Positions 2,666 through 28,794 of a stretch of 64,000 nt of DNA are shown here, one piece after another (the first letter of the stretch is position 1; each line of letters begins with the position of its first letter). The position numbers and the translations under genes were made by a program. A model generated the notes under the pieces. That model was not told the DNA's origin, did no database searches, and worked only from the letters and a program-made list of their open reading frames with translations. The DNA is from Acutalibacteraceae bacterium (GTDB taxonomy: Bacteria; Bacillota; Clostridia; Oscillospirales; Acutalibacteraceae), in NCBI GenBank assembly GCA_045580545.1, contig JAZNOA010000007.1, positions 65,007 to 129,006 on the forward strand, in the 5' to 3' direction.

Positions 2666-2795
2666 TTTTTCACCGCTCCAAGGTGTAAAAAATTTTGGGC
2701 ACCGCAAGAGGGCTCCTTTAAATTGAGAGCAGAGTTTTTTAAAATTAAATATTTCCGGGTGTAGCGCAGTTGGTAGCGCGCCTGCTTTGGGAGCA
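2666..2795 (+). repeat. Repeat unit B: leader plus 5' half of the split tRNA-Pro(UGG) (2755-2795)
   Basis: Same leader as unit A. The tRNA acceptor 5' strand, D arm, anticodon stem 5' strand and loop are intact up to tttgggagca, followed by unrelated sequence. Confidence 0.85.
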
Positions 2796-2896
2796 CACAG
2801 CAGTTAAGACTCCTAAAATTCAACACCACCCCGAAAACCCTTTATTTATGCGGTTTTCGAGACTTCACAAAAATTAAAAAAGCGGTCAAAATTAAA

Positions 2897-2918
2897 TTTG
2901 ACCACAGTTTGTCCCACA
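2897..2918 (+). repeat. 22-bp direct repeat, left copy (tttgaccacagtttgtcccaca)
   Basis: Exact copy of 28614-28635. Confidence 0.85.
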
Positions 2919-2963
2919 ATTGAAAATTTTTTCAAAAATCGGGACGCAAAAACAACTTAATAT

Positions 2964-3039
2964 CGAGGTGTGGCGCAGTTGGTAGCGCACTAGTTTTGGG
3001 AACTAGATGCCGCAGGTTCGAGCCCTGTCACCTCGACCA
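2964..3039 (+). tRNA. tRNA-Pro (anticodon UGG), intact, CCA encoded
   Basis: Cloverleaf read by hand: acceptor CGAGGTG/CACCTCG, D stem GCGC/GCGC, anticodon stem CTAGT/ACTAG, loop TTTGGGA, T stem GCAGG/CCTGT, T loop TTCGAGC, then ACCA. Confidence 0.95.
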
Positions 3040-3042
3040 AAA

Positions 3043-3075
3043 ACGCTCAGGAACTACTTGTTCCTGAGCGTTTTC
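3043..3075. terminator. Bidirectional intrinsic terminator
   Basis: 12-bp stem acgctcaggaac/gttcctgagcgt, flanked by an A run upstream and a T run downstream. Serves the tRNA (+) and the 3115..5007 gene (-). Confidence 0.7.
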
Positions 3076-3114
3076 TTATTAAATTATATGTCAATTTAAT
3101 ATTCTATGCCAATT

Positions 3115-5007
3115 TTACTTTGATACGACCTTAACCAGCGTTTCTAGTCGTGCCTTATTTTCAGCACGTGTTTTTTTAGGATAGTTTAATTTATCACAAA
3201 TATATTCTATCTTTTGGCAGAATATATCTACACTTAATTTTGACATATAAAGTTCGCCGTCTGAATTCCTACGACTAATATGCCACTGTTGTTCGTCATC
3301 CAACGGATGTTCTGGTCTAAAATCATAAATATTAAATATTTTATGTTCAATTTGTGTAATCCACGCAGCTCCAACCTCTGTTAATGCTCCCCAAGACGTT
3401 TTGGTATTATTACTTGTAATGAAAATTACATACATTTTTTGTGTTGAATAACTATCAACAAAGAAATCTCTCAAATAATCATATATGCCGCTTTTCCCAA
3501 CATCACCTTCTGGTATTCTGGAAATTTCATCATCGCAGTTGGTATATATTATATCTTCGCCTGGCACTCCATTAAACAAAAGCATATTATATACTATATC
3601 AGCTAAATCCTTGTCGGGATACGTTTGGCTTATTAGAATTTTTTTCTTCTGTGAATCAATTATGCTTTTAATACCCATATCTGGGCTATTTGTATTTATT
3701 TCGTCCTCAAGAATTGATTCCACTTCTGATAAACCACTTACACCTATACCAAATTTTTCAGAAATTTTAGATGCTGCTTTTCTGGCAGTGTTTTTTCTAA
3801 ACCTGTCTACTGAACTTCGAAATGTTTCTTCATTTTTTCGTTGTTCTTCTAACTTTTTCTCTTCTTTTTTTCTTTTTCCTAAAGAAACAAACACATCACG
3901 CATTTTAAGTATATCAGGTAGAAGCGTTCCTCTAACATATTCTAATACCGCTTGGTACCTAGGATCATCAGATTTATACCCCTGTCTATTACTCAGTGCC
4001 ATATCTGGTAATTCTGTAAGCTCAAAAATATCTACATGCAATTGCCCCACAACATACACTTCTGAAAGTTTATTCTGGCCTACTACTGGAAGAATATTAA
4101 ACTCACCCATTTTTTGGTTTGCATATAGAGATATAAAATTATCCGGAAAATCTGTCATTTCCGCTTTTCGTCCACGAGTGCTTTTGTAAGTACCGATCCA
4201 TCCATGTATTTCTACATTATATGAATGCGATTCTCCGTTTTTATCTTTCATTTCAATAGGTACAGAAGCCATTGATAATTTTTTGCACAAATCACTCTTA
4301 TTGTTTTCAAAAGGCGTATTAAACAGAGAAGTTAATTCCGAAAAGTCTTTTCCTAGAGTTATAAGTGTTGATAATTCAGAAATTATTTCTTTGTCATACT
4401 CACATATAGTTTCTTGTTCTGTGCCTCTTATGATATGAATTTTAAACGACTCATCAACCAAAGGAAAAATTTTAAGCAAGTTTCTTTTTATTGCTTTTAA
4501 AGTACTATGTAATTTATATTCGGGTTTTTGCATAACTACAGCTGTCCCATTGCCAGTTATTTTTTCAAATGTAATTTTATCTTCTTCCAATGGCTTCAGC
4601 AAATTATCATCGCCTATATATCTAGAAAGAATAAATCCAGATTTTTCAGAATTAGAAATAGTTTTAACAATTACATTTTCAGAAACAGAAAGCGCCGCCA
4701 GTTTCCCTACTCCTTTGCGCCCCATTTTCTTTCTGTTAAGATCAGTCTGTGCTTCATCTTCAGTAGTGCGAGAAACTGCAGCAACATTCAAATATTTTCG
4801 TATATCACCATTTTGATATGACATTCCCTTGCCATCATCCTCAACCGTGATATCATCCTTATTAGCAATAATATAAACATTATGTGCATCAGCATCGTAA
4901 GCATTAGCAATTAATTCTGCTAGAACATAATAAATATTTGTATACAAACTAGGTCCTAACAATTCTAGAATTCGAGGATCAATATTTAATTTATATTCTT
5001 TTTTCAA
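3115..5007 (-). CDS. GHKL (MORC/Hsp90-like) ATPase with a C-terminal TIR-like (flavodoxin-fold) domain
   Basis: Bergerat-fold motifs ELIANAYDADA, VEDDGKGMS and GRKGVGKLAALS. Lys/Glu-rich linker. The C-terminus KKILISQTYPDKDLADIVYNML...MYVIFITSNNTKTSWGALTEVGAAW has a TIR/DUF1863-like pattern. TTG start, with RBS AAGGTGA overlapping the end of the upstream methylase gene. Confidence 0.7.
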   Translation of the reverse strand: MKKEYKLNIDPRILELLGPSLYTNIYYVLAELIANAYDADAHNVYIIANKDDITVEDDGKGMSYQNGDIRKYLNVAAVSRTTEDEAQTDLNRKKMGRKGVGKLAALSVSENVIVKTISNSEKSGFILSRYIGDDNLLKPLEEDKITFEKITGNGTAVVMQKPEYKLHSTLKAIKRNLLKIFPLVDESFKIHIIRGTEQETICEYDKEIISELSTLITLGKDFSELTSLFNTPFENNKSDLCKKLSMASVPIEMKDKNGESHSYNVEIHGWIGTYKSTRGRKAEMTDFPDNFISLYANQKMGEFNILPVVGQNKLSEVYVVGQLHVDIFELTELPDMALSNRQGYKSDDPRYQAVLEYVRGTLLPDILKMRDVFVSLGKRKKEEKKLEEQRKNEETFRSSVDRFRKNTARKAASKISEKFGIGVSGLSEVESILEDEINTNSPDMGIKSIIDSQKKKILISQTYPDKDLADIVYNMLLFNGVPGEDIIYTNCDDEISRIPEGDVGKSGIYDYLRDFFVDSYSTQKMYVIFITSNNTKTSWGALTEVGAAWITQIEHKIFNIYDFRPEHPLDDEQQWHISRRNSDGELYMSKLSVDIFCQKIEYICDKLNYPKKTRAENKARLETLVKVVSK

Positions 5008-5009
5008 CT

Positions 5010-6068
5010 TTAATCACCTTGTATTTTTAAATCATATTCTTGTAGATGCCTAATAATGGACAATCCTATAATCTCACCCAGTCTAACTGGAACAGCATTT
5101 CCTATATGACGAGCTATATCCCTAAATACAAATGGTACTTGCGGATTTATAAAATCATAATTATCAGGAAATGTTTGAAGCAATGCACCTTCTCGTAAAG
5201 AAAGTGCTCTATCTTGTTCTGGATGTCCAAAACGTCCTGTGCCATAACTAAAAAATTGTGTAGTAATTGTAGGACCGATTTGATTCCATGTCATTCGTCC
5301 ATATACTGAGCTATATGTCTGACCACTATCTTTACGATGACATTTACATCTTAATTCTTCAGGCCAATCCCTCCAAGTACCACCAGGAATAGAAGCTCTA
5401 ATACGTCGCAAATTAATTTCCGAAAGTACTGCTGAGCGATGAAGCGGATCATTCGGATCAACTTGACCTGCTTCAATAACTGGTAATCCTTGTATAAAAT
5501 CCGATACATGAACATCCTTTTTGTTGTGTGTATGTTCAACCAATTTAATTGGTCCTAATAAAGAAGCTATTAGGACAAAACGTCTACGCGTTTGCGGTAT
5601 GCCATAATCTGGACAAAATACAACTTGTTCATCAAAATGATATCCATTTTCTTTTAATATTTTAATGAATTTTTTATAAATACTTGTTTCACGAATTTGT
5701 GGTACATTTTCCATTGAAATAACTGTAGGCTTGACTTCAGTGATTAATCTACCAAATTCCAACAATAAATTATATTTATCATCTTTTTTGTTTTTAGCAC
5801 CAAGTTTAAAACGCATTTGAGAAAAAGGTTGACAAGGTGCACATCCAACTAGAACTTTTACGGAGTTTTCATCGTAAAGTTCAATGATTTCCTGACCTGT
5901 TACTTCACGAATATTTTTTATTTTATAAACAACTTGATTATTATGTTCATATGTATACTGACAAGTTTGGTCTATATCATATCCTGCAATAACATTGAGA
6001 CCTGCGTTAAGCAATCCGCGCGTTAGGCCTCCTATTCCACAAAACAAATCAACAATCTGTACTGGCAT
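5010..6068 (-). CDS. DNA (cytosine-5)-methyltransferase
   Basis: Motif I DLFCGIGG, motif IV GCAPCQPFS, motif VI ENV, motif VIII QTRRRF, motif X GNAVPV. Start trimmed to MPVQIVDLF (ATG 6068, AGGAG 6 nt upstream). Confidence 0.9.
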   Translation of the reverse strand: MPVQIVDLFCGIGGLTRGLLNAGLNVIAGYDIDQTCQYTYEHNNQVVYKIKNIREVTGQEIIELYDENSVKVLVGCAPCQPFSQMRFKLGAKNKKDDKYNLLLEFGRLITEVKPTVISMENVPQIRETSIYKKFIKILKENGYHFDEQVVFCPDYGIPQTRRRFVLIASLLGPIKLVEHTHNKKDVHVSDFIQGLPVIEAGQVDPNDPLHRSAVLSEINLRRIRASIPGGTWRDWPEELRCKCHRKDSGQTYSSVYGRMTWNQIGPTITTQFFSYGTGRFGHPEQDRALSLREGALLQTFPDNYDFINPQVPFVFRDIARHIGNAVPVRLGEIIGLSIIRHLQEYDLKIQGD

Positions 6069-6101
6069 TATATCTCCTACTATTCTATAAATCATTATGT
6101 G

Positions 6102-6415: not shown

Positions 6416-7822
6416 TCATCTTAATCGCCTCTTTTTTTCTTTTATCATCTCTGCCAGCAGTCTCTCGCATTCTTCTTTTGTCTTGGCATACACATTAAAT
6501 TTCTTACGTTTGCCATTGGGAAGACGCGGATAATAACTGCCCTCCCACAAGGTGTCGTTTATTTGATACACGCAACCTGTTCCTGACTTTCGAATCTTTC
6601 GCTCTAAGGGTTTGAAATCGGGTGCAGGTTGCGTTTTTATGTTCGGCTTTGGTGTTTGCTCTACCTCTGACATCTCGACGTCTGTACCGCCTATTTTGCG
6701 GTCTATGTTTATTGCCGCTTGCATCTGCATTGTGTCGGTCATATGGCTGTATATGTCAAGCGTTGTTGCGGCGGAGACGTGCCCTATTATTGATGATAAA
6801 GTTTTTACGTCCATACCGTTTTCAAGCGACCTTGTTGCGAATGTATGCCGTAGGTCGTGGAAGCGGATTTGTTTACAGTTGGCTCTTTCTAATAACCGTT
6901 TGAGTATGTGTGTTATGGAACTTGGGTGCCTTGGTTGGTTGAGTTCAAGCGGTGACGGGAATATCCACTCGGAATTCACCGTCTTTTTATATTCTCTGAA
7001 CACCTCAACCACCGCAGACGGTAGCACCAAAGTACGAATTGATGATTTAGTTTTAGGTGTTGATATTTGTATTGTGCCACGGGCGGCTGTCGCTTGTCGG
7101 CGGATTTTGAGTTCGCCTGTGCGGAAGTTTAGGTCTTCCCACTTGAGTCCGAGCATTTCACCTTTACGCATACCCGTTGAGAGTTCAAGCAAGAACATTT
7201 CATAAAACCCCTCTTGCTTTGCTTGTATTAAGAACCGTTTTGTTTCTTCTGTCGTCAACACTTGCATCTCTTGAGCTTTCTTAGGCGGTAGTTTGCAACC
7301 TATTGCAGGATTTACTTTTATCAGTCCCTCGTCAACCGCTTTTTGAAGTGCCGTTCTACAAGTCGTGTGACAAGCTCTTACCACTCTATCCGAAACTCCC
7401 TCACCGTACAGCTCAACATATTGTTTTCTACCACTCTTTTTAAGCTTTGCATAGAACTGTTGCAAGTCGTTTTGCGTTAACTTATTCAGTTGTATTTTAC
7501 CAATGCTAGGGATTATGTGATTGTATATTCTGCCCTCGTAACATACCATTGTGGATTCTCTGAGTGACGGTTTCGAGAAGTTCTCATACCAGAACTCAAG
7601 CCAATTTCCAAACGACATTTCAGGTGTACATCGTGTGCTAACTGTTCCGTATTCTTCTCTAAGTTTTTCTAACTTTTCAGCACACTCGGTTTTAGTTTTA
7701 GCAAGGACGTTTTTGGTCTTGGGCAAACCGTTTTCATCATAGCCGATTACGACTCTGCCTTCCCATCTTCCGTCCTTGCGTTGTCTTAGCATTCCTTTGC
7801 CATTGCTTCTTCTTTTTGCCAT
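6416..7822 (-). CDS. Tyrosine recombinase/integrase with N- and C-terminal arm-type domains
   Basis: Catalytic signature RFHDLRHTFATRSL...IGHVSAATTLDIYSH. N-terminal GRWEGRVVIGYDENGLPKTKNVLAKTKTECAEKL is repeated near the C-terminus as TLWEGSYYPRLPNGKRKKFNVYAKTKEECERLL. Confidence 0.9.
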   Translation of the reverse strand: MAKRRSNGKGMLRQRKDGRWEGRVVIGYDENGLPKTKNVLAKTKTECAEKLEKLREEYGTVSTRCTPEMSFGNWLEFWYENFSKPSLRESTMVCYEGRIYNHIIPSIGKIQLNKLTQNDLQQFYAKLKKSGRKQYVELYGEGVSDRVVRACHTTCRTALQKAVDEGLIKVNPAIGCKLPPKKAQEMQVLTTEETKRFLIQAKQEGFYEMFLLELSTGMRKGEMLGLKWEDLNFRTGELKIRRQATAARGTIQISTPKTKSSIRTLVLPSAVVEVFREYKKTVNSEWIFPSPLELNQPRHPSSITHILKRLLERANCKQIRFHDLRHTFATRSLENGMDVKTLSSIIGHVSAATTLDIYSHMTDTMQMQAAINIDRKIGGTDVEMSEVEQTPKPNIKTQPAPDFKPLERKIRKSGTGCVYQINDTLWEGSYYPRLPNGKRKKFNVYAKTKEECERLLAEMIKEKKRRLR

Positions 7823-7832
7823 ATCGCACCTC

Positions 7833-8987
7833 CTAGATTATGAAGTCGTCCACGAACGAGCCGATTATTTTTGATGCCCTTTGTTGCATATCGGTTGTTA
7901 CGTGAGTGTATGTATCGAGCGTGAAGCTCGCGTTTGTATGACCTAATATTTTTGAAAGTGTTTTGGCATCCACTCCGCTTATGAGCGAGTGTGTTGCAAA
8001 GGTATGTCGCAAATCGTGGAAGCGTATCAGCGGAAGTTCCGCGTTTTTAAGTATTACTTTGAGTTTGTTGTAGGCACTTGATGGTGCCATCGGCAGTTCG
8101 GGGTTGTATAAGTTTCGGAATATCCAATCGCCGAACGCAGTTTCTTTTCTTCGTCTTAGTATCGATGCGGTGCTTGGCGGAAGCAGAATTGTTCTCTTAC
8201 CAGTTTCGGTTTTTGTCTCTCCCCAGGCTAGTCCTCCACCGCGTTTTGCCGTTACCGAGCGACTGATTTTCAGTTTGCCTGACTGCTCATCGAAGTCATC
8301 CCACCTTAGTCCGCATATCTCACCGAGCCGAAGTCCTGTTGTGCATTCTGTGTAGAAGAAGTCGTACCATTCGGGATAAGACTTTATCGCTTCAAGGAAT
8401 ATTTTGAATTGTTCTTCATTTAGAATCTGCATCGGCGGATAATTATTTTTAGGTATTGTCGTACCATTTGTAGGATTTTTTACTATCAATCTTTCTTTTA
8501 CCGCCGCATCCATTGCTTCATGAAGCATCATATGTATCGAGCGAACCATACTGTCAGCAAGCTCAGTACCGTGCTTTTCGGTAGCTCTTTTTCTGCCGTA
8601 CTTTTTAAGATAGTTATACATTTTTTGTATTTCGGCTGTCGTTATAAATGCAATTTGTTTGTCACCAAGGTGAGGCTTTATATGATTTTCTATCATATTT
8701 GTGTAGCTATCAAAGGTGCTAGGTCTGATAGAAAATATCATATATTCGTTCATCCATTTGTCGAGCCAGTCGGCAAGAGTCATGTTACTTTCTTCGGTAA
8801 GTTCTACTCCACGGTACTCTTCAATTCGCAAATGCATTTTCTCTAGCGCTTCCTTTTGAGTCTTACCATAGACGTAACGGAAGATTGGAGTGCCGTCATT
8901 TTTATGACCGACAACGATTCTTCCTTCCCAAAGATTTTTACGTTTTTGCCTAATATTGCCGTCACCAGACGGTCTTCTTCCAGCCAT
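7833..8987 (-). CDS. Tyrosine recombinase/integrase
   Basis: RFHDLRHTFATHSL...LGHTNASFTLDTYTH. N-terminal arm-type domain NLWEGRIVVGHKNDGTPIFRYVYGKTQKEALEKM. Confidence 0.9.
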   Translation of the reverse strand: MAGRRPSGDGNIRQKRKNLWEGRIVVGHKNDGTPIFRYVYGKTQKEALEKMHLRIEEYRGVELTEESNMTLADWLDKWMNEYMIFSIRPSTFDSYTNMIENHIKPHLGDKQIAFITTAEIQKMYNYLKKYGRKRATEKHGTELADSMVRSIHMMLHEAMDAAVKERLIVKNPTNGTTIPKNNYPPMQILNEEQFKIFLEAIKSYPEWYDFFYTECTTGLRLGEICGLRWDDFDEQSGKLKISRSVTAKRGGGLAWGETKTETGKRTILLPPSTASILRRRKETAFGDWIFRNLYNPELPMAPSSAYNKLKVILKNAELPLIRFHDLRHTFATHSLISGVDAKTLSKILGHTNASFTLDTYTHVTTDMQQRASKIIGSFVDDFII

Positions 8988-9493: not shown

Positions 9494-9913
9494 CTATACT
9501 GCGTATTTCGATTGCTTTTCAAGTACTTTTTGAATTTTATAGTTTTTATCTAATTCTACTAGCTGTTGCTCGTGGTAATATTTAGATGCTTCGCCGATTG
9601 GACGGATAGTATAAAGCAAATTTCCGTTGCGAGTTTTTCCGTTTTTCAAACGAACCTTTGTAGGCTCTACCGTTATCAATTTCTTCTCGACTAAACTATC
9701 AACATATTTTCTTACTGTATTCACACTCATACCGAGTACCTTGCCTATGGTTTTATAGCTTGGGTAACACTGAAACGTTTTTCTATTTTCGAAATCCATA
9801 AGGCAAGTGTATACTGCAATTTCGCCACTGTTCAAACCTAACCTTATAATTTGTTTCGGCATTGGAATGTAATCTTTTACAGGGTCAGTTTTAGGATAGC
9901 GATAATATTTCAT
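9494..9913 (-). CDS. Winged-helix/HTH DNA-binding protein (element regulator or replication-initiator-like)
   Basis: 139 aa with ...GEIAVYTCLMDFENRKTFQCYPSYKTIGKVLGMSVNTVRKYVDSLVEKKLI.... Overlaps the upstream gene by 4 nt (ATGA). Confidence 0.6.
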   Translation of the reverse strand: MKYYRYPKTDPVKDYIPMPKQIIRLGLNSGEIAVYTCLMDFENRKTFQCYPSYKTIGKVLGMSVNTVRKYVDSLVEKKLITVEPTKVRLKNGKTRNGNLLYTIRPIGEASKYYHEQQLVELDKNYKIQKVLEKQSKYAV

Positions 9914-10119
9914 CGCTTTTCTCCTGACTTCTCATCTACCCAAGCTATAAATTTTTCTCGATTAATAAACATTCTGCTTCCGACTCTAAAGGATGGGAAA
10001 TCTTTTTCATGCATCAACTCATAAGCGGATGCAATACTGATACCTAGAACTTCCGTGAGGTTTTGAGCATTTAACATCAGCGGCAGTTCATCATAGGTTT
10101 TATACTTACAGTTGTTCAT
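9910..10119 (-). CDS. Excisionase-family HTH protein
   Basis: 69 aa with LNAQNLTEVLGISIASAYELMHEKDFPSFRVGSRMFINREKFIAWV (HTH_17-like). Confidence 0.65.
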   Translation of the reverse strand: MNNCKYKTYDELPLMLNAQNLTEVLGISIASAYELMHEKDFPSFRVGSRMFINREKFIAWVDEKSGEKR

Positions 10120-10937: not shown

Positions 10938-11063
10938 AAGAATTACACCCCATATTCATAAATATTATATATGAATTTTAGCATAATTCTAAAAATTTGT
11001 CAAGGCCATTATTAAAAATTTTTTACACATAAAAAAGCGAAGCTGATTTAATAATCAACTCCG

Positions 11064-11099
11064 CTTATTCTTTGTTTACTGTGTATCAAATTTTGACAT
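11064..11099 (+). repeat. 36-bp direct repeat, copy 1
   Basis: cttattctttgtttactgtgtatcaaattttgacat matches 27280-27315 at 34 of 36 positions. Confidence 0.8.
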
Positions 11100-12203: not shown

Positions 12204-12228
12204 TGAATCACTTCTTCCAAAAATATAA

Positions 12229-12380
12229 TTCAGGTGTATGTTACGTAAAATAAATAATTGTTTCAAACAATTATTTTAATGTAAAATCGAAATTGAGCCT
12301 GCGAAATGAGATTTTACATTAAAAATGTAAGTGCCGTTTATAATTGGGGCGAATGCACCCCTAGCTAACATACACCTGAA
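12229..12380 (-). ncRNA. Retron msr-msd non-coding RNA (predicted)
   Basis: A perfect 15-bp inverted repeat (a1/a2), ttcaggtgtatgtta at 12229-12243 and taacatacacctgaa at 12366-12380, brackets two hairpins: GGGGTGCATTCGCCCC, and a 14-bp stem TTTAATGTAAAATC/GATTTTACATTAAA. Lies directly upstream of the RT. Confidence 0.7.
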
Positions 12381-12398
12381 ATTATATGTTAAATAACG

Positions 12399-20098: not shown

Positions 20099-20101
20099 GA
20101 T

Positions 20102-20878: not shown

Positions 20879-20881
20879 TTT

Positions 20882-21868
20882 TTATTCTCCTTTTTCAAAC
20901 ATATGAATTTCACTTATGAACTTCTCGGGTGCAGATAAAATTTTTACCATTTTTTGATATTGAATAGGTTTACAATCACTATCTATATATTTAATAATTC
21001 TTTTTATATGTGATTCTGAATAAAAATACCAACCGTAAACAATGTCAAGTTCATTATCGGATACCCTTTTATACCTTTTCAATTCCGGCAAAAGTTTCTT
21101 AATTTCCTCTTCTGATTTTTCTATATTTGATTTTATTCCATCACGCTTCTTAATCGCTTTCGCAGAACATTCACTCAGATCTTTTTTATATTGTTTCAAC
21201 CTTTTCTGTAGACGCAATTTCTTTTTACGAAGTTTATCGTATTCTATAGCCACTTCTGTTTTTAAAGGGCATATTAAATGATTCCCCTGCGGAAGTTCGC
21301 CTCTTTTTCCGGTTAGTCTTTCTATATCATGCGGCAATCCTCTGGATGAAAACTGATATAGCCAAATACGAAATTCTTTGTTTTTATACTGTAATAACAC
21401 ATCAGTGTGGTCTCCGCTGTCTTGCTTTGCGTTTAATGATGTTTCTACAGCTGCATCTTTTGAAATCAAATTTTCCTTAATCATAAAAGCAAAATCAGGT
21501 TCACGTAATAAAGAAGTTAAAGTTCGGAGACCTCTTGCCAATGCCCCTGTAATTTGTGCTTCATCATTAGTTGTTTTCTTACATTCACAAAGTAATTTCA
21601 CAAGATAAGTTGCCGGTGAAAAATTAATTTTTTCAATCTCTTCATGGAAAATCTCACTATATGTCTTCTTTATTCCGGTTCTGGATTCCTCTGTTTTAGG
21701 TAAATGCTCACAAGAATATCCATCCATTGGTATATTAAGAATTTGAAGTTTTGAAAAAATTCTTTCAGCCAAAGAAAAAAGTTCCGGATCTTGTTCATAA
21801 AGATACTCTATTCCATCTTTATACGTTTTTTCGGACCATATTTTGCATAATTCTCTTATATTAGACAT
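20882..21868 (-). CDS. Hypothetical protein with a Lys-rich coiled coil (possible second endonuclease or specificity factor)
   Basis: 328 aa. GDHTDVLLQYKNKEFRIW is a possible nuclease-like D..D-x-K element. Coiled coil KLRKKKLRLQKRLKQYKKDL. Its stop lies 3 nt upstream of the start of the downstream 20102..20878 endonuclease-candidate gene. Confidence 0.5.
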   Translation of the reverse strand: MSNIRELCKIWSEKTYKDGIEYLYEQDPELFSLAERIFSKLQILNIPMDGYSCEHLPKTEESRTGIKKTYSEIFHEEIEKINFSPATYLVKLLCECKKTTNDEAQITGALARGLRTLTSLLREPDFAFMIKENLISKDAAVETSLNAKQDSGDHTDVLLQYKNKEFRIWLYQFSSRGLPHDIERLTGKRGELPQGNHLICPLKTEVAIEYDKLRKKKLRLQKRLKQYKKDLSECSAKAIKKRDGIKSNIEKSEEEIKKLLPELKRYKRVSDNELDIVYGWYFYSESHIKRIIKYIDSDCKPIQYQKMVKILSAPEKFISEIHMFEKGE

Positions 21869-21941
21869 TTTTATCTCCTATATATTTTAGTTACAATAAG
21901 AACAAGGCCTTTCGGCCGTACATGTTCATTTTTAAGTCGAC

Positions 21942-22772
21942 TTAAATAATATCGAGGGTTCTCAGCTGATTGCCAATAGCTTTAATAACTACCGTAGGCA
22001 CTGCATTTCCAACTTGTTTATATTGATTATCCTTATTACCCGCCAAATAAAAATCACGCGGGAATCCTTGAACTTCAAGACATTCTTCAACAGTTATATA
22101 GTGTAATTCGCCGTTAACGCGATAGCAATCCCAATTGTATTTATTGTCTATTCCGGAACGTCTGCCACCAATTCTTATTGTATATGCATATTCTCTTTCA
22201 GTATGTCCGTGCATAACATCAGAAAGCGTTTTATCGCACCCTGTCGGTTCAGGAAATACAAACTCTTTTTTTATATCGTTCCGTACTCCAACAATAAAAA
22301 CTCTCTTTCTTATTTGAGGTACTCCATAGTCCTTTGCTTCCAGAACATCATGATATACTTTATACCCGCATTTTGTAAGCTCTTCAATAATCACTTTAAA
22401 GGTTTCGCCCTTATTATGAGAGAGTAACCCCTTGACATTTTCTAAAATAAAAGCTTTAGGTTTGCATTCTTTCAGCAATCTTATCACTTGATATATAAGG
22501 GCACCTCTGGGATCATCAAGTCCACCTTTTTGACCTACATTGCTAAATGACTGACATGGAAACCCTCCACACAACAAATCAAATTCGGGAATATCCTTAA
22601 CGTCTATTTTACTTATATCACCTTTAGGTGTTATTCCATAATTTCTCTCATATGTTTCGATAGCAATTGGATCGATTTCCGAAGCCATAACACACTCGCC
22701 TCCGCATTGTGTCAGCCCGTAATGAAATCCTCCTATACCGGAAAATAAATCTATAAATTTAAAATTTAACAT
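21942..22772 (-). CDS. DNA (cytosine-5)-methyltransferase (compact, 276 aa)
   Basis: DLFSGIGG, GFPCQSFS, ENV, QIRKRVFIVG, GNAVP. Confidence 0.9.
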   Translation of the reverse strand: MLNFKFIDLFSGIGGFHYGLTQCGGECVMASEIDPIAIETYERNYGITPKGDISKIDVKDIPEFDLLCGGFPCQSFSNVGQKGGLDDPRGALIYQVIRLLKECKPKAFILENVKGLLSHNKGETFKVIIEELTKCGYKVYHDVLEAKDYGVPQIRKRVFIVGVRNDIKKEFVFPEPTGCDKTLSDVMHGHTEREYAYTIRIGGRRSGIDNKYNWDCYRVNGELHYITVEECLEVQGFPRDFYLAGNKDNQYKQVGNAVPTVVIKAIGNQLRTLDII

Positions 22773-22782
22773 CGTATTTCCT

Positions 22783-24267
22783 TTACATATTATCTTCTAC
22801 GTCGAATATTGTCATTTGTTCATTTTCTGTTACCGGTATCTCAATCGACGTTTTGCCTGTTTTTAACACACTTAATATTTGTTCTGCAATCGCCTCTATA
22901 ACATTTACTGTTACACTGTTACCAAACTGCTTATACAAATGTGTATCGGAAAGCGGCAATATAAAATCATCGGGGAACCCCTGAAGTCTTGCCCATTCGC
23001 GAGGTGTCATTTTTCGAATACCTTCTTTATTGATTTCGCCCTTAATATGTGTAGTTGGGGTGAGATTTTTCTGACGTTTATCTATAATGAGGTTTCTCTC
23101 ACGCCCCATTCCACCGCACACAATTGCACCTGCAATTCCATCCATTTCTCTGATTTCATAACCAAAGCCATTCCCCTTAGATGCATGTCTTGCTTTGTGT
23201 TGCCGTAACGTTTCCATATAAACATCGCTTAGGTAATACTTAGACGGCACCGCTTGTTTTTCTATAATATCCTTTATTCTTTTCGTATCATCCGTAATAT
23301 TAGGGAAGATAAATTTTTTAGGTGCGACATCGTTTCTGAACGCTACCATATAAATTCTTTCTCTGTTTTGCGGTACTCCAAAGTTTTTACTGTTTAACAC
23401 CTTGTGAAAGACTTTGTAACCAAGGTCTTCAAATGTTTTGCAGATTATTTTAAATGTTCTTCCTTTATCGTGAATCACAAGTCCCTTAACATTTTCACAG
23501 AATATCACCTTTGGTTTATGATGTTCGCAAATGCGTGCCACATCTAAGAATAATGTACCTCTACACAGACCTTTATAATTGTCATCGAATCCCATTCTGT
23601 GGCCTGCAAGGCTAAACGCTTGACAGGGGAACCCCGCTAAACATATATCAAATTCAGGAACATCTTTTTCATCTATTTTTGTTATATCCCCGGCTATATC
23701 AAAATCATCCTTGAAGTTTTCCTTATATGTTTTTTGTGCGTTTTTATCCCACTCACTCACAAACACTGTTTCGATTTGTTCTTTGAAGGCATTTTCAAAC
23801 CCTAATCGAATTCCGCCTATTCCGGCAAATAAATCAATCGATTTAAATATTGGTTTTCTTTGAGTTACAGCTTTTTCTATTATATCAGCACATTTTTTAG
23901 TGTTTTTCTTTATATCCTTACCCCAGAAGCGAAGCACTGTCCATCCTTCATCTTCAAGGCTTTTAGTTACTTCTTCATCTCTTTGCATATTACGCTCTAT
24001 TTTGGGAATCCAAAATTCTTGTCGAGATTTTATTTCCCTTTTTTTATTATCCCAATCATAGCCATGCCAAAATTCACTATCACAGAAAACGGCAACTTTT
24101 TTACTCACAAACACGATGTCGGGTTTTCCGGTTACCTTTTTATAGTTTTTTCTATAACGCAATCCACGTGACCATAATTCTTTACGCAATAATCGCTCGA
24201 TTTCTGAGTCCTTGTTTTTGACAGCTGTCATGTTTTTGTGTCGTTGCTCGGGAGTATGATTATCCAT
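22783..24267 (-). CDS. Vsr (very-short-patch repair endonuclease) fused to a C5 DNA methyltransferase
   Basis: N-terminus TPEQRHKNMTAVKNKDSEIE...KPDIVFVSKKVAVFCDSEFWHG...WTVLRFW is Vsr-like. C-terminus has DLFAGIGG, GFPCQAFS, ENV, QNRERIYMV and GNSVTVNV. Confidence 0.9.
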   Translation of the reverse strand: MDNHTPEQRHKNMTAVKNKDSEIERLLRKELWSRGLRYRKNYKKVTGKPDIVFVSKKVAVFCDSEFWHGYDWDNKKREIKSRQEFWIPKIERNMQRDEEVTKSLEDEGWTVLRFWGKDIKKNTKKCADIIEKAVTQRKPIFKSIDLFAGIGGIRLGFENAFKEQIETVFVSEWDKNAQKTYKENFKDDFDIAGDITKIDEKDVPEFDICLAGFPCQAFSLAGHRMGFDDNYKGLCRGTLFLDVARICEHHKPKVIFCENVKGLVIHDKGRTFKIICKTFEDLGYKVFHKVLNSKNFGVPQNRERIYMVAFRNDVAPKKFIFPNITDDTKRIKDIIEKQAVPSKYYLSDVYMETLRQHKARHASKGNGFGYEIREMDGIAGAIVCGGMGRERNLIIDKRQKNLTPTTHIKGEINKEGIRKMTPREWARLQGFPDDFILPLSDTHLYKQFGNSVTVNVIEAIAEQILSVLKTGKTSIEIPVTENEQMTIFDVEDNM

Positions 24268-24341
24268 TTGTGTTTCTCCTTTTTAACTTTTAACACAAGT
24301 ATATTCAAAAAATTTATTAAGTCCAGACATATTTTAAAAAA

Positions 24342-25265
24342 TTAATATTTTATCCTTTTAACTTGGCAAGTGCTGAAATCGCACTTGCTTCTTTGGTCAA
24401 TAAGAGAATCTGCCGATATACTTAAATCAATTCTATTTGGTTTGTCATGTCTTGTAACCAGACCCTGTACCGATTCAGATTTCATATTAAAAGTGCCTAC
24501 AGGTATATGTATTAGAATTATCTCATTTTTAAATTGATCATTAAGAATTAACGTCCAATCTTTATCAATACAATTGGTCTTTGGATTAATCCAGAAAACT
24601 GCTTTGTTGTCTTGTCTTTTAGAATAATTTACATTACTTCCTACTATAATACCGTTGTTTTCCAAAAACCTAATAGCCTCTTTTTTAGCTCTAATTTCCA
24701 GCTGTTCTTCAGAACAATTTTTTATGGAAGAAATTAATTCCGTTTTGTTCTTTGCAGAACGCTTTTTTTCTAAATCAGAAAAAACATTAATTCCTATTAA
24801 TTCAATAAGAAACAATGCTTCATCAAGATATTGTTGAAGTACAACTTCTTTAAATCTATTAATATTTGGTTTATTTCCTTGATTTTTGTTATCACAATCT
24901 AATCTACTGTTTTTACTTGCTTTTGATATTAGGCTTGCCTCAATATAATCAATATCTGCACGGTCAAAACTATTGTCTGATGTTGTAAGAATAACTACTC
25001 TTTCCCACCAAGATTTTCCTATTATATGCTGCTTGATCCTTTTTGACAAATCCGATGCTTGACCAACATATACCATATCTTCAGATAACAATAAATATAC
25101 TCCAAAACGATTACAAGCATCCGATGAGATTAAATTTTCTACTGATTCTCTGGGTGCAGAATAAAGCTCTCCTTTATTCCAACTGGAATCTGCTATACTT
25201 ATAACACCGTTTAATGTTCCATCTTCCAATAATAAATTTATCGTTTTTGCTTTTGGATTAGCCAT
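24342..25265 (-). CDS. GIY-YIG-like nuclease domain protein
   Basis: Start trimmed to MANPKAK (AGGAG upstream). Contains FGVYLLLSEDMVYVGQASDLSKRIKQH, a GIY-YIG-like motif. Confidence 0.6.
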   Translation of the reverse strand: MANPKAKTINLLLEDGTLNGVISIADSSWNKGELYSAPRESVENLISSDACNRFGVYLLLSEDMVYVGQASDLSKRIKQHIIGKSWWERVVILTTSDNSFDRADIDYIEASLISKASKNSRLDCDNKNQGNKPNINRFKEVVLQQYLDEALFLIELIGINVFSDLEKKRSAKNKTELISSIKNCSEEQLEIRAKKEAIRFLENNGIIVGSNVNYSKRQDNKAVFWINPKTNCIDKDWTLILNDQFKNEIILIHIPVGTFNMKSESVQGLVTRHDKPNRIDLSISADSLIDQRSKCDFSTCQVKRIKY

Positions 25266-25302
25266 AATAATATCTCCTAAAATCAAATATTTTTGACGTC
25301 AA

Positions 25303-25512
25303 CTAATTTTTATCAACGATTTCTACAATATCATCCATTGTGCAACCTAGTGCTGAACATATCTTAACCAATACATCACTGGATACCACCGCACCGTCTT
25401 TGCCCATTTTTGTGATGGTAGCAATACTGATACCGGCCTTTTCAGCGAGTTCCTTTTTCTTCATGTCGCGGTCAATTAAAAGCTTAAACAACTTCTTATA
25501 ACTTGCAGCCAT
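25303..25512 (-). CDS. XRE/Cro-type HTH transcriptional regulator
   Basis: MKKKELAEKAGISIATITKMGKDGAVVSSDVLVKICSALGCTMDDIVE. Start trimmed to MAASYKK (GAGGTG upstream). Confidence 0.75.
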   Translation of the reverse strand: MAASYKKLFKLLIDRDMKKKELAEKAGISIATITKMGKDGAVVSSDVLVKICSALGCTMDDIVEIVDKN

Positions 25513-25687
25513 AACACACCTCAAAATAGTTATATTTTTTGCAATTTATTATTAGTTCGTATTATACCACATTAAATTTGAAGACTCAACTGTTTTCAGC
25601 AAAAATATTGAGATTTCAGCATTTTTCTTTTTCTATTTTAAAATACGGCAATAGCCGATGAGGTTTGCTCATCGGCTTGGTGCTTTT

Positions 25688-26509
25688 TTATGACATAGTG
25701 AAGGTTCCATTTTGTTTGTTGTCAATAACGAATTCAAAGAAAGTTGTTTTGCTGACTGCGGCGAGGTAGGTGTTGGGATTGATATTGGGGTATTCTTTCT
25801 CAACAAGGTCGAGGGTTTCTTTTAGTTGGAGCATTGTTGCAAATTCGTGTTTACAAGTACCCGTGCAGTAACAGTTGCAAACAAGTCCGCTGATTTGACC
25901 GTTATCGTAATTAAACTCAATCTCATAGGGTTTGCTGCCTGTTACGATGGCTCTGCCTTTGCCGTTTTTGAGTTCAATATATTGCACTTGGTTTTCTATG
26001 TAGTATTCGTGACCTTTATCTGCTGTTGACTTATCAATTTTCATTCCGCTAAGGTCATTCAAATTGAACGTTTCGTCATCGCTTGAGGAGACAAATTCTT
26101 CATCTTCAGAAGCGGGTGCTTTGAACCAAGTGATAATCTGCTCGTAATTCAAAGCGCTTTCATCAGTTGTAATGAAATGTGAGCCTGCCAAATGGAATTC
26201 TCCAACAACATTAGTATTAGCAACACCAATAACACGCTTATAGTCGGATAGTTTAATTTTAAATGTATAATTTATATCTACTACTCGACCGCGCAAACCT
26301 TCGAGTTTGCCATCAACATAAACGATATCGCCGCGCTTCAAATCAAACATATCGTTATAGTAAGAGCAGGTCAGATGTCTGTCATGAAAGAAAACGTCAA
26401 CCACCGATTTTCTTGCGTTGCTTGTGACTTCCTTATTACTTTGTGCATTTTCAGAAATGCATTGTTCCTTTTTCTCTGTTTCTGCTGTAAATCCAATTTT
26501 AAAACTCAT
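25688..26509 (-). CDS. SWIM zinc-finger protein
   Basis: CxCxnCxH signature in GLVCNCYCTGTCKHEFA near the C-terminus. Confidence 0.6.
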   Translation of the reverse strand: MSFKIGFTAETEKKEQCISENAQSNKEVTSNARKSVVDVFFHDRHLTCSYYNDMFDLKRGDIVYVDGKLEGLRGRVVDINYTFKIKLSDYKRVIGVANTNVVGEFHLAGSHFITTDESALNYEQIITWFKAPASEDEEFVSSSDDETFNLNDLSGMKIDKSTADKGHEYYIENQVQYIELKNGKGRAIVTGSKPYEIEFNYDNGQISGLVCNCYCTGTCKHEFATMLQLKETLDLVEKEYPNINPNTYLAAVSKTTFFEFVIDNKQNGTFTMS

Positions 26510-26520
26510 TTTTATCCTCC

Positions 26521-26667
26521 TTAAAATTCTTCGTCTGTATCGTCTTCGCTGTTTTCTTCTTCCTCTGAATCGAGCAAGTTCATAAGTGCAGTAAATTCAG
26601 TCGCTTGCTCAAGTGTGTCCAATCTTCCATCGCCGTTAAAGTCAAACAAATCTCCAAACAGTCCCAT
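26521..26667 (-). CDS. 48-aa acidic protein with an EF-hand/dockerin-like Ca-binding loop
   Basis: MGLFGDLFDFNGDGRLDTLEQATEF...EEEENSEDDTDEEF. Below the ORF-track cutoff; read by hand. Confidence 0.4.
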   Translation of the reverse strand: MGLFGDLFDFNGDGRLDTLEQATEFTALMNLLDSEEEENSEDDTDEEF

Positions 26668-26683
26668 ATTAATACCTCCATTT

Positions 26684-26863
26684 TTATACTCGCGGATAAA
26701 TTTTTTTATCTACCCAAGAATTGAAACCAAAGTAATTAGTTTCAAAACGTTGTAGCACTTCGTATTTTTCAAGCCATACTACCACTCCGTTAACGTTTTT
26801 AGGAAATAAAGCAAATCTAGTAATTGTACGAGTATCACCTTTTTTATAAATAGAAAAACGCAT
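26684..26863 (-). CDS. 59-aa hypothetical protein
   Basis: MRFSIYKKGDTRTITRFALFPKNVNGVVVWLEKYEVLQRFETNYFGFNSWVDKKIYPRV. Fills the gap between two same-strand genes. Confidence 0.35.
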   Translation of the reverse strand: MRFSIYKKGDTRTITRFALFPKNVNGVVVWLEKYEVLQRFETNYFGFNSWVDKKIYPRV

Positions 26864-26896
26864 ATGTTTTCACACCCCTTAATGCAGACTTCTTTT

Positions 26897-27178
26897 TCAA
26901 CTTTGACAAATCCAAATAATAAATAAAATAATTGCAGGTATGATTAGAAACGGCATTTGCAAGCAAAACAGACTAATGATTATCCAATGCGTACCTGTCA
27001 TGTTTCTTAACCAACTGGTAAATCCACTTTGCTTTTGTGGTGTATAACCGCCTGAACTGTGCCCGTTTTTATAAATGTGCTCAAAGTCATAGCAATCACT
27101 ATCATACTCAACAAAATCCACTTTGCCGTCACGGTTGGTGTCCGCATAATCGCCTGTGATGCCCTTATAATCTTCCAT
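26897..27178 (-). CDS. Small membrane protein with an EF-hand-like loop
   Basis: DTNRDGKVDFVEYD loop and the C-terminal TM segment WIIISLFCLQMPFLIIPAIILFIIWI. Confidence 0.5.
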   Translation of the reverse strand: MEDYKGITGDYADTNRDGKVDFVEYDSDCYDFEHIYKNGHSSGGYTPQKQSGFTSWLRNMTGTHWIIISLFCLQMPFLIIPAIILFIIWICQS

Positions 27179-27279
27179 TTGTCAGAACCCCTTTCTTTAT
27201 TCTGACTTAATTATAAAATATTCACTGTCCTATAAAACGGACTTAAGCGGGGTGAAGTTGAAGATTTTTGAAAAAATTT

Positions 27280-27315
27280 CTTATTCTTTGTTTACTGCGT
27301 ATCAAATTTTGATAT
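27280..27315 (+). repeat. 36-bp direct repeat, copy 2
   Basis: cttattctttgtttactgcgtatcaaattttgatat matches 11064-11099 at 34 of 36 positions. Confidence 0.8.
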
Positions 27316-27466
27316 ACTTACCACCTCTAAACAGCCTGTTATATCTGCTCAATATATGGTACAAAAAACCGCCGAAGTTTTTACGCTTCAGCAGTTTTAA
27401 ATTTTTAAACTAAAATTATCTGTTTTTTACATTATAATAAATAACATTGTTTATACCTAAGGTAAC

Positions 27467-28339
27467 TCAAATTTCTTTTTCATTTACAAATACTCGGCAA
27501 TTTCTCGATTTAAACTTTTTAATAGTAAAATGAAAAATACCGCTTCGATATCGTTTGTAATCAGGATCAATTATATCGTATAATGCCCTTCCATTAGTAG
27601 TGAATTCCACATTGCCAGCCTTTATTTTGTTATCGTTCGATGGATCACCATATACAACTAACTTTTGTCTCCCTGAGACAAATACTTTTTTTGTTACGGG
27701 ATTTTCTTCATTTTTAAACACATATTCTGTTTTGAAATCACATTCAATCAAGCCCAATCTTTCTAATTCTTTTAGCTGGCTAGGTGTTATGCCCGTATCT
27801 TCATACGCTTTTCTATTGGTAGATATAAAAAGAAGTAAATTTACCTCTTCTTTGCCAAAAGTTCGCAATGCAAAACGTGAAATACTGCAAAATAATTCAG
27901 CATCTTCATAACGCATAATAGACAAAGTATGTAATAAAGAAAAACTTATCTTTCCTGGGTGGTTTGCTTCTTCTGCTAATAATTTTGCCCATATCAATTG
28001 CATGTCCGGATTTGATATTAACCTAGCCTTATCAAAGAAGAATTCAAGCCAATCATCTTCAATTTTTTCCGGTTCGGCAGAATCCTCTAAGAACTGAAGA
28101 GCCTTGAGTCCAATATCTTTTTTTCTTTTTTGCTGTTTAACTAATTTTTTATACCCACAAAGAAAATCAAACATTTCTGGATTAACTTTTTTTCCGTCAA
28201 TAGCACGATTAATTAATTCTTTATGACCTTCAACTATGACGACATCTAGTGGATCTTGCAAAAAGTTCATAATAACCTCTAAAAATTTTTCAGATGATTT
28301 CCCAGCATGTTTAGCAAGTTCCAAATTATCAATACTCAT
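27467..28339 (-). CDS. DUF2806-like protein
   Basis: Start trimmed to MSIDNLELAK (GGAGAAG upstream). EDDWLEFFFDKARLISNPDMQLIWAKLLAEEANHPGKISFSLLHTL matches the DUF2806 pattern as I remember it. Confidence 0.55.
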   Translation of the reverse strand: MSIDNLELAKHAGKSSEKFLEVIMNFLQDPLDVVIVEGHKELINRAIDGKKVNPEMFDFLCGYKKLVKQQKRKKDIGLKALQFLEDSAEPEKIEDDWLEFFFDKARLISNPDMQLIWAKLLAEEANHPGKISFSLLHTLSIMRYEDAELFCSISRFALRTFGKEEVNLLLFISTNRKAYEDTGITPSQLKELERLGLIECDFKTEYVFKNEENPVTKKVFVSGRQKLVVYGDPSNDNKIKAGNVEFTTNGRALYDIIDPDYKRYRSGIFHFTIKKFKSRNCRVFVNEKEI

Positions 28340-28527
28340 AAGCTCTTCTCCTCTCGTGACAAAACACATCTTATGCATTTCAAAATATCAATAATAGTAT
28401 AGAACAATTTTGTCAAAAAAGCAACACTTGTGGTGAATCGCTATATACTTTTATATTTTTTGTAAACAATTATTATTGTGAAAATCTTTTTATTTTGTAA
28501 ATACCCCTTGCAACGACAAAAATTAAC

Positions 28528-28556
28528 TTGACAAATCTCTTTCTCCAAGTTAAAAT
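28528..28556 (+). promoter_or_regulatory. Consensus-like sigma-A promoter
   Basis: TTGACA (28528-28533), 17-nt spacer, TAAAAT (28551-28556). Confidence 0.5.
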
Positions 28557-28571
28557 GCACCAAACAAATAA

Positions 28572-28616
28572 CTCCCCAAGGCGATAATTTTTATCGCTTT
28601 CGGGGAGGATTTTTTT
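28572..28616 (+). terminator. Intrinsic terminator about 15 nt downstream of the promoter -10 box
   Basis: Two-part stem ctcccc..gcgata / tatcgc..ggggag followed by gattttttt. Confidence 0.55.
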
Positions 28617-28635
28617 GACCACAGTTTGTCCCACA
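28614..28635 (+). repeat. 22-bp direct repeat, right copy
   Basis: tttgaccacagtttgtcccaca, identical to 2897-2918. Confidence 0.85.
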
Positions 28636-28749
28636 GACAGCTTTGGAGTATGTGGAAACAGTGGAGTAAAGAGTGCTAAAGAGCATTGATTTCCGAGTGG
28701 ATAGTGCTAAAAAGCGCTATATGTAGCCGATATAAAGAAAATATAGCCG

Positions 28750-28794
28750 TTTGGGAGCAGGATGCCGCAGGTTCGAATCCTGTCACTCGGACCA
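28750..28794 (+). pseudogene. 3' half of the split tRNA-Pro(UGG)
   Basis: tttgggagcagg atgcc gcagg ttcgaat cctgt cactcgg a cca: anticodon loop, 3' anticodon stem, variable loop, complete T arm, 3' acceptor strand and CCA. No 5' half lies upstream. Confidence 0.85.

Follow-up and report, generated by a model that had tools for sequence, protein, structure and literature searches.

Elements that target tRNA genes conventionally bring a 3′ half that rebuilds the cut gene at the junction, and the accepted rule is that an island mends the tRNA it has cut by supplying the missing part. Here we analyse a 64-kb stretch (64,000 nt; the window, whose coordinates are used throughout) of contig JAZNOA010000007.1 from an Acutalibacteraceae bacterium, in which a tRNA-Pro(UGG) gene is split in its anticodon loop by an island. 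We consider it highly likely that this island (2793-28749) is an integrative element that replaces the cut tRNA-Pro gene with its own complete copy instead of mending the junction. We are just as confident of the explanation as a whole, in which the element belongs to a family from gut Oscillospirales with two paralogous tyrosine integrases, an Xis-like protein and a small backbone, and in which this family supplies a whole replacement gene where the rule calls for a part. The replacement-gene strategy is apparently undescribed, yet it stays within the known logic of site-specific integration.

Integration sites in tRNA genes are reportedly divided into the sublocation classes of Williams 2002, and phage 16-3, which is said to use the tRNA-Pro(CGG) of Sinorhizobium, is an example of the anticodon-loop sublocation. 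Phage HP1 of Haemophilus influenzae reportedly has an attP that shares a long stretch with the host tRNA operon, and its target is said to be still rebuilt at the junction through this homology. Like HP1, the window family carries more tRNA than the minimal displaced segment, and function survives integration in the anticodon arm; unlike HP1, it leaves its target unrebuilt, and a conserved spacer separates its tRNA from the core by about 170 bp. Zhao and Williams 2002 are said to have described a reversed-target element, which brings the promoter of the gene and its 5′ part. That element is likewise an exception to the rule of a 3′ part supplied by the element, but there the gene is regenerated at the junction, whereas the window family supplies the whole gene and has probably captured the host promoter.

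Islander-type islands are tyrosine-integrase genomic islands in tRNA genes (PMC4383910). The window family resembles them in its tyrosine integrase, its tRNA target, the crossover in the 7-nt anticodon loop, the tRNA fragments at island ends and the tandem accretion at one tRNA. The window element, like them, has a recombinase of the phage-integrase family and a site inside a tRNA gene, at the anticodon loop; however, where Islander-type islands regenerate the target at one junction and leave one displaced fragment at the other, the window family leaves the junction broken with a decayed junction-proximal 3′ half, displaces and orphans both host halves, and supplies a complete separate tRNA. 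Tycheposons of Prochlorococcus are flanked by a full-length tRNA and conventionally produced partial tRNAs; they too are small integrase-bearing cargo elements at specific tRNA genes including tRNA-Pro(UGG) (bioRxiv 10.1101/2020.12.28.424599). Both groups have modular cargo that includes defence genes, repeated use of the site and partial-tRNA remnants, but tycheposons have one integrase, no replacement gene, and another integrase lineage and host phylum. Papers on tycheposons (bioRxiv 10.1101/2020.12.28.424599), on archaeal tRNA disruption and on tRNA gene fragments describe conventional reconstitution, and in the literature that we covered, which is incomplete and so no proof of novelty, we found no account of an element that orphans both host halves and brings a complete gene in their stead.

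The resident tRNA-Pro(UGG) gene lies in two pieces on the plus strand. Its orphan 5′ half (copy B, 2755-2795, CCGGGTGTAGCGCAGTTGGTAGCGCGCCTGCTTTGGGAGCA) and its orphan 3′ half (28750-28794, TTTGGGAGCAGGATGCCGCAGGTTCGAATCCTGTCACTCGGACCA) each contain the core TTTGGGAGCA, at 2786-2795 (attL) and 28750-28759 (attR) respectively, and the attachment core is the 7-nt anticodon loop of tRNA-Pro (TTTGGGA). In-silico removal of 2796-28759 joins the halves into a 76-nt sequence that ARAGORN calls as tRNA-Pro(tgg); its acceptor stem has 7 bp, one of them a G-U pair, and it has D, anticodon and T arms and an encoded CCA. The resident terminator, read directly from the sequence after the 3′ half, is at 28798-28839 (plus strand). 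Exact, unbroken copies of the joined 76-mer occur in at least 120 Oscillospirales genome records, so the resemblance of the joined halves is not due to chance. Because of the ARAGORN call and these records, the two halves are to be seen as pieces of one real gene and not as two independent decayed copies. An earlier note on this DNA had proposed the split, the two halves with their coordinates and sequences, the 76-nt joined tRNA with its single G-U pair, CCA and terminator, and the lack of repair at either end, and in all of this it proved correct. ARAGORN calls no tRNA across the left or the right junction of the intact window, and copy B is followed merely by a decayed echo of the tRNA 3′ half, as the note had also seen: in a cmscan against Rfam, 2755-2834 scores 23.6 bits as a tRNA, below the gathering score of 29.

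The window leader (about 2661-2754) directly precedes complete tRNA-Pro genes in relatives, and the window’s right flank (28795 onward, including a DUF4379 gene) lies directly 3′ of complete tRNA-Pro genes in relatives; the resident terminator and downstream DNA abut the 3′ end of a complete tRNA in L231, L261, L214, L230 and L210, loci from the set with the exact sequence of the internal tRNA described below. Since the flanks that border the halves in the window border a complete tRNA in relatives, the two halves occupy the native position of the resident gene. The locus has a sigma-70 promoter at 2426-2454 on the plus strand (TTGACA-17-TATAAT, a 12/12 consensus match), and relatives have the same promoter type 5′ of their orphan halves. 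The DUF4379 gene (29011-31086), which is directly 3′ of tRNA-Pro in both the window and L210, has internal 210-bp repeats; its 691-aa product contains eight repeats of the DUF4379 treble-clef zinc finger and weakly matches REase_MTES_1575.

The single tRNA that ARAGORN calls in the intact window is a complete tRNA-Pro(UGG) at 2964-3039 on the plus strand, within the insertion and 168 bp past the 5′ half. It scores 67.4 bits in Rfam, folds into a perfect cloverleaf and has its own terminator (3043-3076, plus strand). The earlier note contained neither this tRNA nor the second 5′-half copy and the 22-bp repeat described below. The internal tRNA is 81-84% identical to the split halves, and its differences from them are compensatory on both sides of the stems: the anticodon stem is CTAGT/ACTAG vs CCTGC/GCAGG in the split gene, and the acceptor stem CGAGGTG/CACCTCG vs CCGGGTG/CACTCGG. 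Such differences mark it as a coherent separate gene and not a crossover hybrid. Its exact sequence is found in 63 species, all of them Acutalibacteraceae or unnamed ruminant-gut Clostridia, and had no matches in viral contigs.

Between the 5′ half and this tRNA lies the left arm of the element (the P′ arm or spacer, 2793-2963, plus strand), which contains the 3′-half echo, a hairpin (CGAAAACC...GGTTTTCG) and a putative arm-type tandem motif (2897-2918), and which is 77-93% conserved beside differing host halves in 10 loci. Each arm has one copy of a perfect 22-bp repeat, TTTGACCACAGTTTGTCCCACA (2897-2918 and 28614-28635). Tandem TTGACCAC-type 8-9-mers, spaced about one helical turn apart, are invariant in 44 otherwise divergent spacers and are found on both arms in the window and in L312, another member of the family; TTGACCACA occurs 3 times in the 64 kb, vs 0.65 occurrences expected. 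These tandem repeats are likely arm-type integrase sites, and the motif overlaps a hairpin and a weak -35-like hexamer. No plus-strand terminator was found between the promoter at 2426-2454 and 3043, and this, together with the consensus match of that promoter, makes it probable that read-through from the captured host promoter produces the replacement tRNA. On the minus strand, 2882-2905 forms a terminator-like hairpin (GTGGTCAAATTTAATTTTGACCGC) with a T run, overlapping the left-arm motif, which would block island transcripts from leaving into the host leader.

The anatomy of the window recurs in a family that we assembled from 80 loci with integrase relatives at 62-96% identity and flanks of up to 10 kb. 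Wherever a locus is long enough to contain both integrase genes, the two lie side by side. In 65 of the 80 loci, ARAGORN calls a complete tRNA-Pro 0.2-4 kb past integrase 1, on the other strand. Of the 15 loci without a call, most are short. In L292 and L334, the place beside the integrase where the tRNA would be expected is taken by an orphaned 3′ half of an element-type tRNA, and in L295 and L327 no tRNA-Pro was called despite 10 kb of sequence on the tRNA side. Of the 63 loci that could be scored, 44 pass a strict alignment score for an orphan 5′ half upstream of the internal tRNA, and inspection by eye raises the number to about 55; the distance is mostly 186-209 nt (about 245 nt in four loci). 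These halves end at the anticodon loop, TTTGGGA or TTCGGGA, and are followed by lineage-specific element ends (GCGTGyC..., GCAGGACACCG..., GCACACAGC... or AGCAAAyCACCG...). Their sequences vary by host, and the internal tRNAs fall into 28 types, one of which is common to elements in 21 species. The orphan anticodon is always that of the internal tRNA: elements with a UGG tRNA occupy UGG genes, and those of a CGG sub-lineage occupy CGG genes. In L346 (MT835887.1, a human-gut scaffold) the element-borne tRNA at 2466-2542 reads TTAGGGA (anticodon AGG), one base from its relatives’ CGG type, beside an orphan host half with TTCGGGA; this could be a sequencing error, or a change that would also alter the element’s own tRNA as a target.

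Across 17 distinct internal tRNA sequences, cloverleaf pairing is kept in 99.4% of cells, whereas slid controls of the alignment are 35-50% paired, and 14 of 21 pairs have changed on both sides, a number reached by 0 of 500 shuffles. The retained cloverleaf, the compensatory changes and the failure of any shuffle to equal them show that the internal tRNAs are under selection as tRNAs. In nine loci (L251, L231, L232, L208, L252, L246, L254, L237 and L206) the spacer and complete tRNA form a unit 3′ of a host-type orphan half that ends TTTGGGA and runs into GCACACAGCAGTTAA..., as in the window. Because the same spacer and tRNA are found beside two kinds of host half, this unit must travel with the element.

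L312 (DPOR01000005.1, a 236-kb contig) contains a 7.2-kb element with the same anatomy and both ends present. On the left, the host 5′ half is followed by a GCATAGAC... spacer with TTGACCACA repeats, a complete tRNA-Pro, integrase 1 and integrase 2; on the right, HTH_36 and Xis-like genes are followed by a DUF6809 block, then ...CAAATGCG and TTTGGGA with the host 3′ half. Between the internal tRNA and the host halves there are differences in the D and T loops. attL and attR are identical over 10 bp in the window and over 7-8 bp in L312, and the window’s right end (28631-28794) is homologous to the L312 right arm. The window’s 26 kb is this small backbone with cargo in three slots.

We propose that integration would cut the resident tRNA-Pro(UGG) in its anticodon loop, with TTTGGGA as the attP core, so that the 5′ half remains with the host promoter on the left and the 3′ half with the host terminator on the right. 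The complete tRNA-Pro of the same anticodon, about 170 bp inside the left end, would then take over the role of the resident gene. The recombination chemistry and the roles of the two integrases are inferred: the integrase pair, together with the HTH_17 excisionase-like protein, would recombine attP with the anticodon arm. The junction of a circular form would read ...ATATAGCCG-TTTGGGA-GCACACAGCAG..., with the complete tRNA about 170 bp off. Later elements could insert into the element-borne tRNA, and an island could disappear from between the internal tRNA and the half at its right end, leaving stacked orphan 5′ halves as scars.

A self-contained tRNA gene lifts a pairing constraint, since a chimera of a host 5′ half with an element 3′ half would mispair. 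In the window such a hypothetical chimera has one acceptor and three anticodon-stem mismatches, and at least 2 stem positions are mispaired in 35 of 47 loci, a count that is slightly inflated by a few halves that are truncated or out of register. Since both tRNA halves come with the element, it would need only a conserved anticodon loop in its target and could move among hosts with differing tRNA-Pro stems. The nearest relative of the window element, L264 (96% integrase identity), lives in hosts of the CGAGGTG tRNA type, and by this affinity the window element evolved in CGAGGTG-type hosts; it now sits in a CCGGGTG-type host. The 3′-half echo in the left arm fits descent from a conventional element whose junction half would have decayed once the whole gene was aboard.

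The earlier note had treated the locus as the product of a single event, but it is layered: the 5′ half is present twice, and more remnants of junctions lie at 31.9 and 32.2 kb. An older orphan 5′ half of tRNA-Pro(UGG) (copy A, 2568-2604, plus strand) ends TTTGGG and is identical to copy B over its 37 nt; joined to the 3′ half, it too is called as a tRNA by ARAGORN. Leader and 5′ half are duplicated together, 2474-2604 being 95% identical to 2661-2791. Between the copies lies a second type of spacer (2605-2754, plus strand), made of a conserved ~110-nt segment and the leader, with a partial copy at about 2462-2566. Copy A and 2605-2754 together are an older unit with this second spacer type. 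The same order of promoter, orphan half, TGAGGTTGCGAGCGC...GGGCACCGCAAGAGGGTTACC and complete tRNA recurs in 17-19 relatives with no integrase within 1-7 kb (L202, L207, L210, L212, L214, L220, L222-L225, L228, L230, L236, L239-L241, L247, L249 and L253). In the consensus fold of this spacer, 7 of 21 pairs have changed on both sides so as to preserve the helix (TTGC..GCAA vs TTGT..ACAA; GCGGT..ACCGC vs GCAGT..ACTGC). Neither spacer type matched Rfam, permissive scans included. The second-type spacer may be a fossil attachment arm, a set of palindromic protein sites or a structured leader RNA.

Stacked orphan 5′ halves (at -416, -208 and similar spacings) are also seen in L264/L252, L208, L246, L309, L314, L315 and L317; both these stacks and the orphaned 3′ half of L292 and L334 are expected if a later element enters an element-borne tRNA. 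In L231, half, spacer and tRNA are followed directly by the native terminator, an arrangement that is the scar of a lost island. On the other side of the island, two junction remnants (31880-32215, plus strand) read ...TATTTATGCGGGTTTACGCTTGATTACTATAACGCT followed by the last 10 nt of a tRNA (ACTCCAACCA at 31938-31947 and ACTCGGACCA at 32206-32215). The two pieces, 31880-31947 and 32160-32215, are near-identical (...AGTATTTATGCGGGTTTACGCTTGATTACTATAACGCT), each then running into a tRNA end and terminator, and have homologues 2-3.5 kb 3′ of the tRNA in L214, L258, L232, L207 and L227. They are traces of other, older insertions at this locus. Their TATTTATGCGG motif is also present in the loop of the left-arm hairpin, at 2840-2866. 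Host genes resume at ~32.4 kb, with an AraC regulator and an alpha-galactosidase.

Other accounts of the locus have to be set against this evidence. Both junctions are left unrebuilt, with just a decayed 3′-half echo after the 5′ half, as one would expect if the island had split the only local tRNA-Pro(UGG) and nothing compensated, so that the host is left with a broken essential gene; this was the conclusion of the earlier note. It fails on the complete canonical tRNA-Pro(UGG) with its own terminator 168 bp 3′ of the 5′ half, inside attL and conserved family-wide, and on the complete tRNA, selected for its cloverleaf, in all 65 loci with a call, and we give it scarcely any credence. A conventional island, with 2964-3039 as the regenerated host gene, the 3′ half at 28750 as the displaced repeat and the upstream 5′ halves as unrelated decayed duplicates, would account for integrases 3′ of an intact tRNA, for the 3′-half repeat at the far end (84% identity over 49 nt) and for an intact tRNA type that is native in 34 related species. 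However, the upstream 5′ halves are perfect pairing partners for the distal 3′ half, which has 1+3 mismatches with the 5′ half of the intact tRNA, and it is on the stem complementarity of this chimera that we rejected the model. Nor does the intact tRNA contain a hybrid junction; the host leader is next to the 5′ half, as the host terminator is to the distal 3′ half, and one spacer-plus-tRNA unit stands behind host halves of many sequences, all of which make a conventional island very unlikely.

Another account would make the orphan halves and spacers tandemly duplicating units of a functional leader module, a structured RNA to which the island is merely adjacent. It draws on the helix-preserving covariation of the second-type spacer, on the 19 loci that have this spacer without an integrase within 1-7 kb and on the promoters upstream of orphan halves, but it leaves unexplained the orphan 3′ half at the far end of the window and L312 elements, the perfect fit of that half to its 5′ counterpart and the strict association of spacer lineages with integrase lineages; covariation of inverted repeats could also come from binding sites of dimeric proteins. 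We think this very unlikely as an explanation of the locus, and a leader role is in any case compatible with scars that later gained such a function. That a metagenome assembler fused unrelated contigs at tRNA-like repeats is worth asking, given that the relatives are mostly metagenome-assembled and many contigs end at or near these tRNAs. The shared core of 7-10 bp is, however, too short to fool an assembler, the architecture is found in dozens of independent assemblies from different studies and hosts, and both L312 junctions lie on one 236-kb contig, which reduces an artefact to a negligible prospect.

Several observations nevertheless weigh against the replacement of a resident gene by an element-borne copy, or narrow what can be claimed for it. 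The earlier note had suggested looking in related genomes for an empty site with this species’ flanks and for a circular excision product, and neither was found. Among the at least 120 matches listed for the joined 76-mer, the loci with an uninterrupted tRNA share no flanks with the window. Exact-pattern metagenome scans gave 0 matches for the leader joined to the intact tRNA and 0 for the intact tRNA joined to the right-flank terminator, and exact-protein look-up of the flank proteins (32447-33241, 29011-31086 and 31115-31840) returned no records. The best relatives of the RelA/SpoT-like gene in the left flank are ~70% identical and do not have tRNA-Pro beside the gene. A gapped-pattern scan of viral contigs for the circular or attP junction gave 0 matches, and the small ‘Bacteriophage sp.’ records that encode both integrases are linear scaffolds and lack terminal repeats. 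With no empty site and no circular form found, present mobility of the window copy is deduced from its intact genes and perfect repeats, by which it may still be mobile. As 34 species have the internal tRNA type as a plain chromosomal gene, its sequence alone is no mark of foreignness and the case rests on context. Promoter-like sites of the spacer itself are weak (9/12), though one perhaps also drives the replacement tRNA, whose expression is a prediction from sequence. Right ends were examined in the window and L312, and the right-end anatomy rests on these two examples. Finally, the resident split gene may itself be part of an older layer, since a second 5′ half and spacer lie upstream of it.

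If the element does replace its target as we propose, the 7-nt anticodon loop is its sole requirement of the host, which should widen its host range. Finders that expect a regenerated tRNA and one displaced fragment will misplace the ends of such elements, tRNA annotation will encounter orphan 5′ halves, and the tRNA-Pro alleles of gut Oscillospirales may be partly of mobile origin. More tentatively, and with a good deal of doubt, we raise the idea that the elements are agents of horizontal tRNA gene replacement, in which the element’s tRNA stays as a working gene after the element is lost and the spacer is a functional processing or regulatory leader RNA. If true, this would account for the one tRNA-Pro sequence that is common to many species, and for the 19 species with promoter, orphan half, ~110-nt structured spacer and tRNA and no nearby integrase; the conserved spacer would then be more than a fossil attP arm, and orphan 5′ halves would pile up before the retained tRNA.

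The rest of the island agrees with the earlier note’s description of an integrase-bearing defence island. Its G+C is ~0.33, vs ~0.42 in the host flank right of 33 kb, and all genes from 3115 to 28378 are on the minus strand, among them two tyrosine integrases and many defence genes. Integrase 1 (6416-7822, 468 aa; Phage_integrase, 1.3e-29; 80 relatives) and integrase 2 (7833-8987, 384 aa), a paralogue that always adjoins it, are 40% identical; both match the Pfam families Phage_integrase and Phage_int_SAM_3 and retain HxxR...Y, and relatives in the PDB are XerA and the Int of Tn1549. As two adjacent, co-inherited paralogues they resemble the paired tyrosine recombinases XerC/XerD and TnpA/TnpB of Tn554, XerC/XerD and TnpA/TnpB being pairs that act together. 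Heterobivalent integrases of the lambda/Tn916 type have repeated arm-type sites on both attP arms, away from the core, and the motif repeated on both arms of the element is a candidate for such sites. Residues 1-60 of both integrases, which precede the SAM-like core-binding domain, are conserved between the paralogues, and a Pfam scan of the two proteins matched no arm-binding family. The C-terminal extension of integrase 1 (residues 411-452) repeats the N-terminal motif of both integrases, R.SG.G...LWEG....G.....VY.KT..E, which suggests that it is a second copy of a putative arm-binding module.

The backbone that the window has in common with L312 also includes an HTH_36 protein (9494-9913, minus strand) and a candidate excisionase of HTH_17/AlpA type, the Xis-like protein (9910-10119, minus strand), which is found in identical form on 13 other contigs. 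A further backbone block (13803-15131, minus strand), with a CAP-domain protein, a DUF6809 protein and a 91-aa open reading frame (ORF), is conserved in L264, L267, L269, L273, L312, L348 and L352, and the right arm (P arm; 28379-28749, plus strand) has the putative arm-type motif at 28614-28635. Between these parts lie the three cargo slots, all on the minus strand. Slot 1 (3115-6095) encodes a BbrUII/HgiDII-family restriction enzyme (3115-5007) and a C5 cytosine methylase (5010-6095). Slot 2 (11181-13686) is a type III-A retron, with a reverse transcriptase (RT; 11181-12266, RT_III-A, 7e-127), a winged-helix protein (12399-12725, with winged-helix matches) and a PRTase (12712-13686, PRTase_III-A, 1.4e-55). 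Slot 3 (15295-28378) holds SIR2-like, PDC-S31 (DUF2971), peptide deformylase, three Dcm methylase, Vsr-Dcm fusion, PDC-S14 (GIY-YIG), PDC-S62 and DUF2806/Abi_alpha-like genes and further ORFs. PADLOC and NCBIfam find type II restriction-modification (R-M), retron III-A, SIR2, PDC-S14, PDC-S31 and PDC-S62 systems.

The same slots hold other cargo in L264 (backbone 92.8% identical) and in L348 (90.6%), and the slot 1 genes of both differ from those of the window. At the position of the window’s retron, L348, whose contig begins inside the same tRNA, has a Gabija-like OLD-TOPRIM ATPase and a UvrD helicase. The island is thus one of variable anti-phage cargo on a conserved mobility backbone, and in gut bacteria of ruminants and humans the family serves as a compact, modular vehicle for defence systems. 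L348 (Logan SRR28204463) and L349-L352, with backbones about 90% identical to that of the window, have in the retron slot either the Gabija-like ATPase and UvrD helicase or small DUF1232/YjzC genes, and a Y4jQ/response-regulator/PNP_UDP_1 block at the window’s R-M position.

There are five C5 cytosine methylase genes in the one island (19142-24267 and 5010-6095), one of them in a Vsr mismatch endonuclease fusion (22783-24267), and the ORFs at 20102-21868 among the methylase genes may be cognate nucleases. The peptide deformylase homologue is short (17620-18033, 137 aa) and lies amid the island’s defence genes. A 36-nt repeat (minus strand ATGTCAAAATTTGATACACAGTAAACAAAGAATAAG), 94% identical between its copies at 11064-11099 and 27280-27315, is located at the borders of the cargo regions, and the block at 10975-11096 is conserved in L348-L352 at the very edge of the variable slot.

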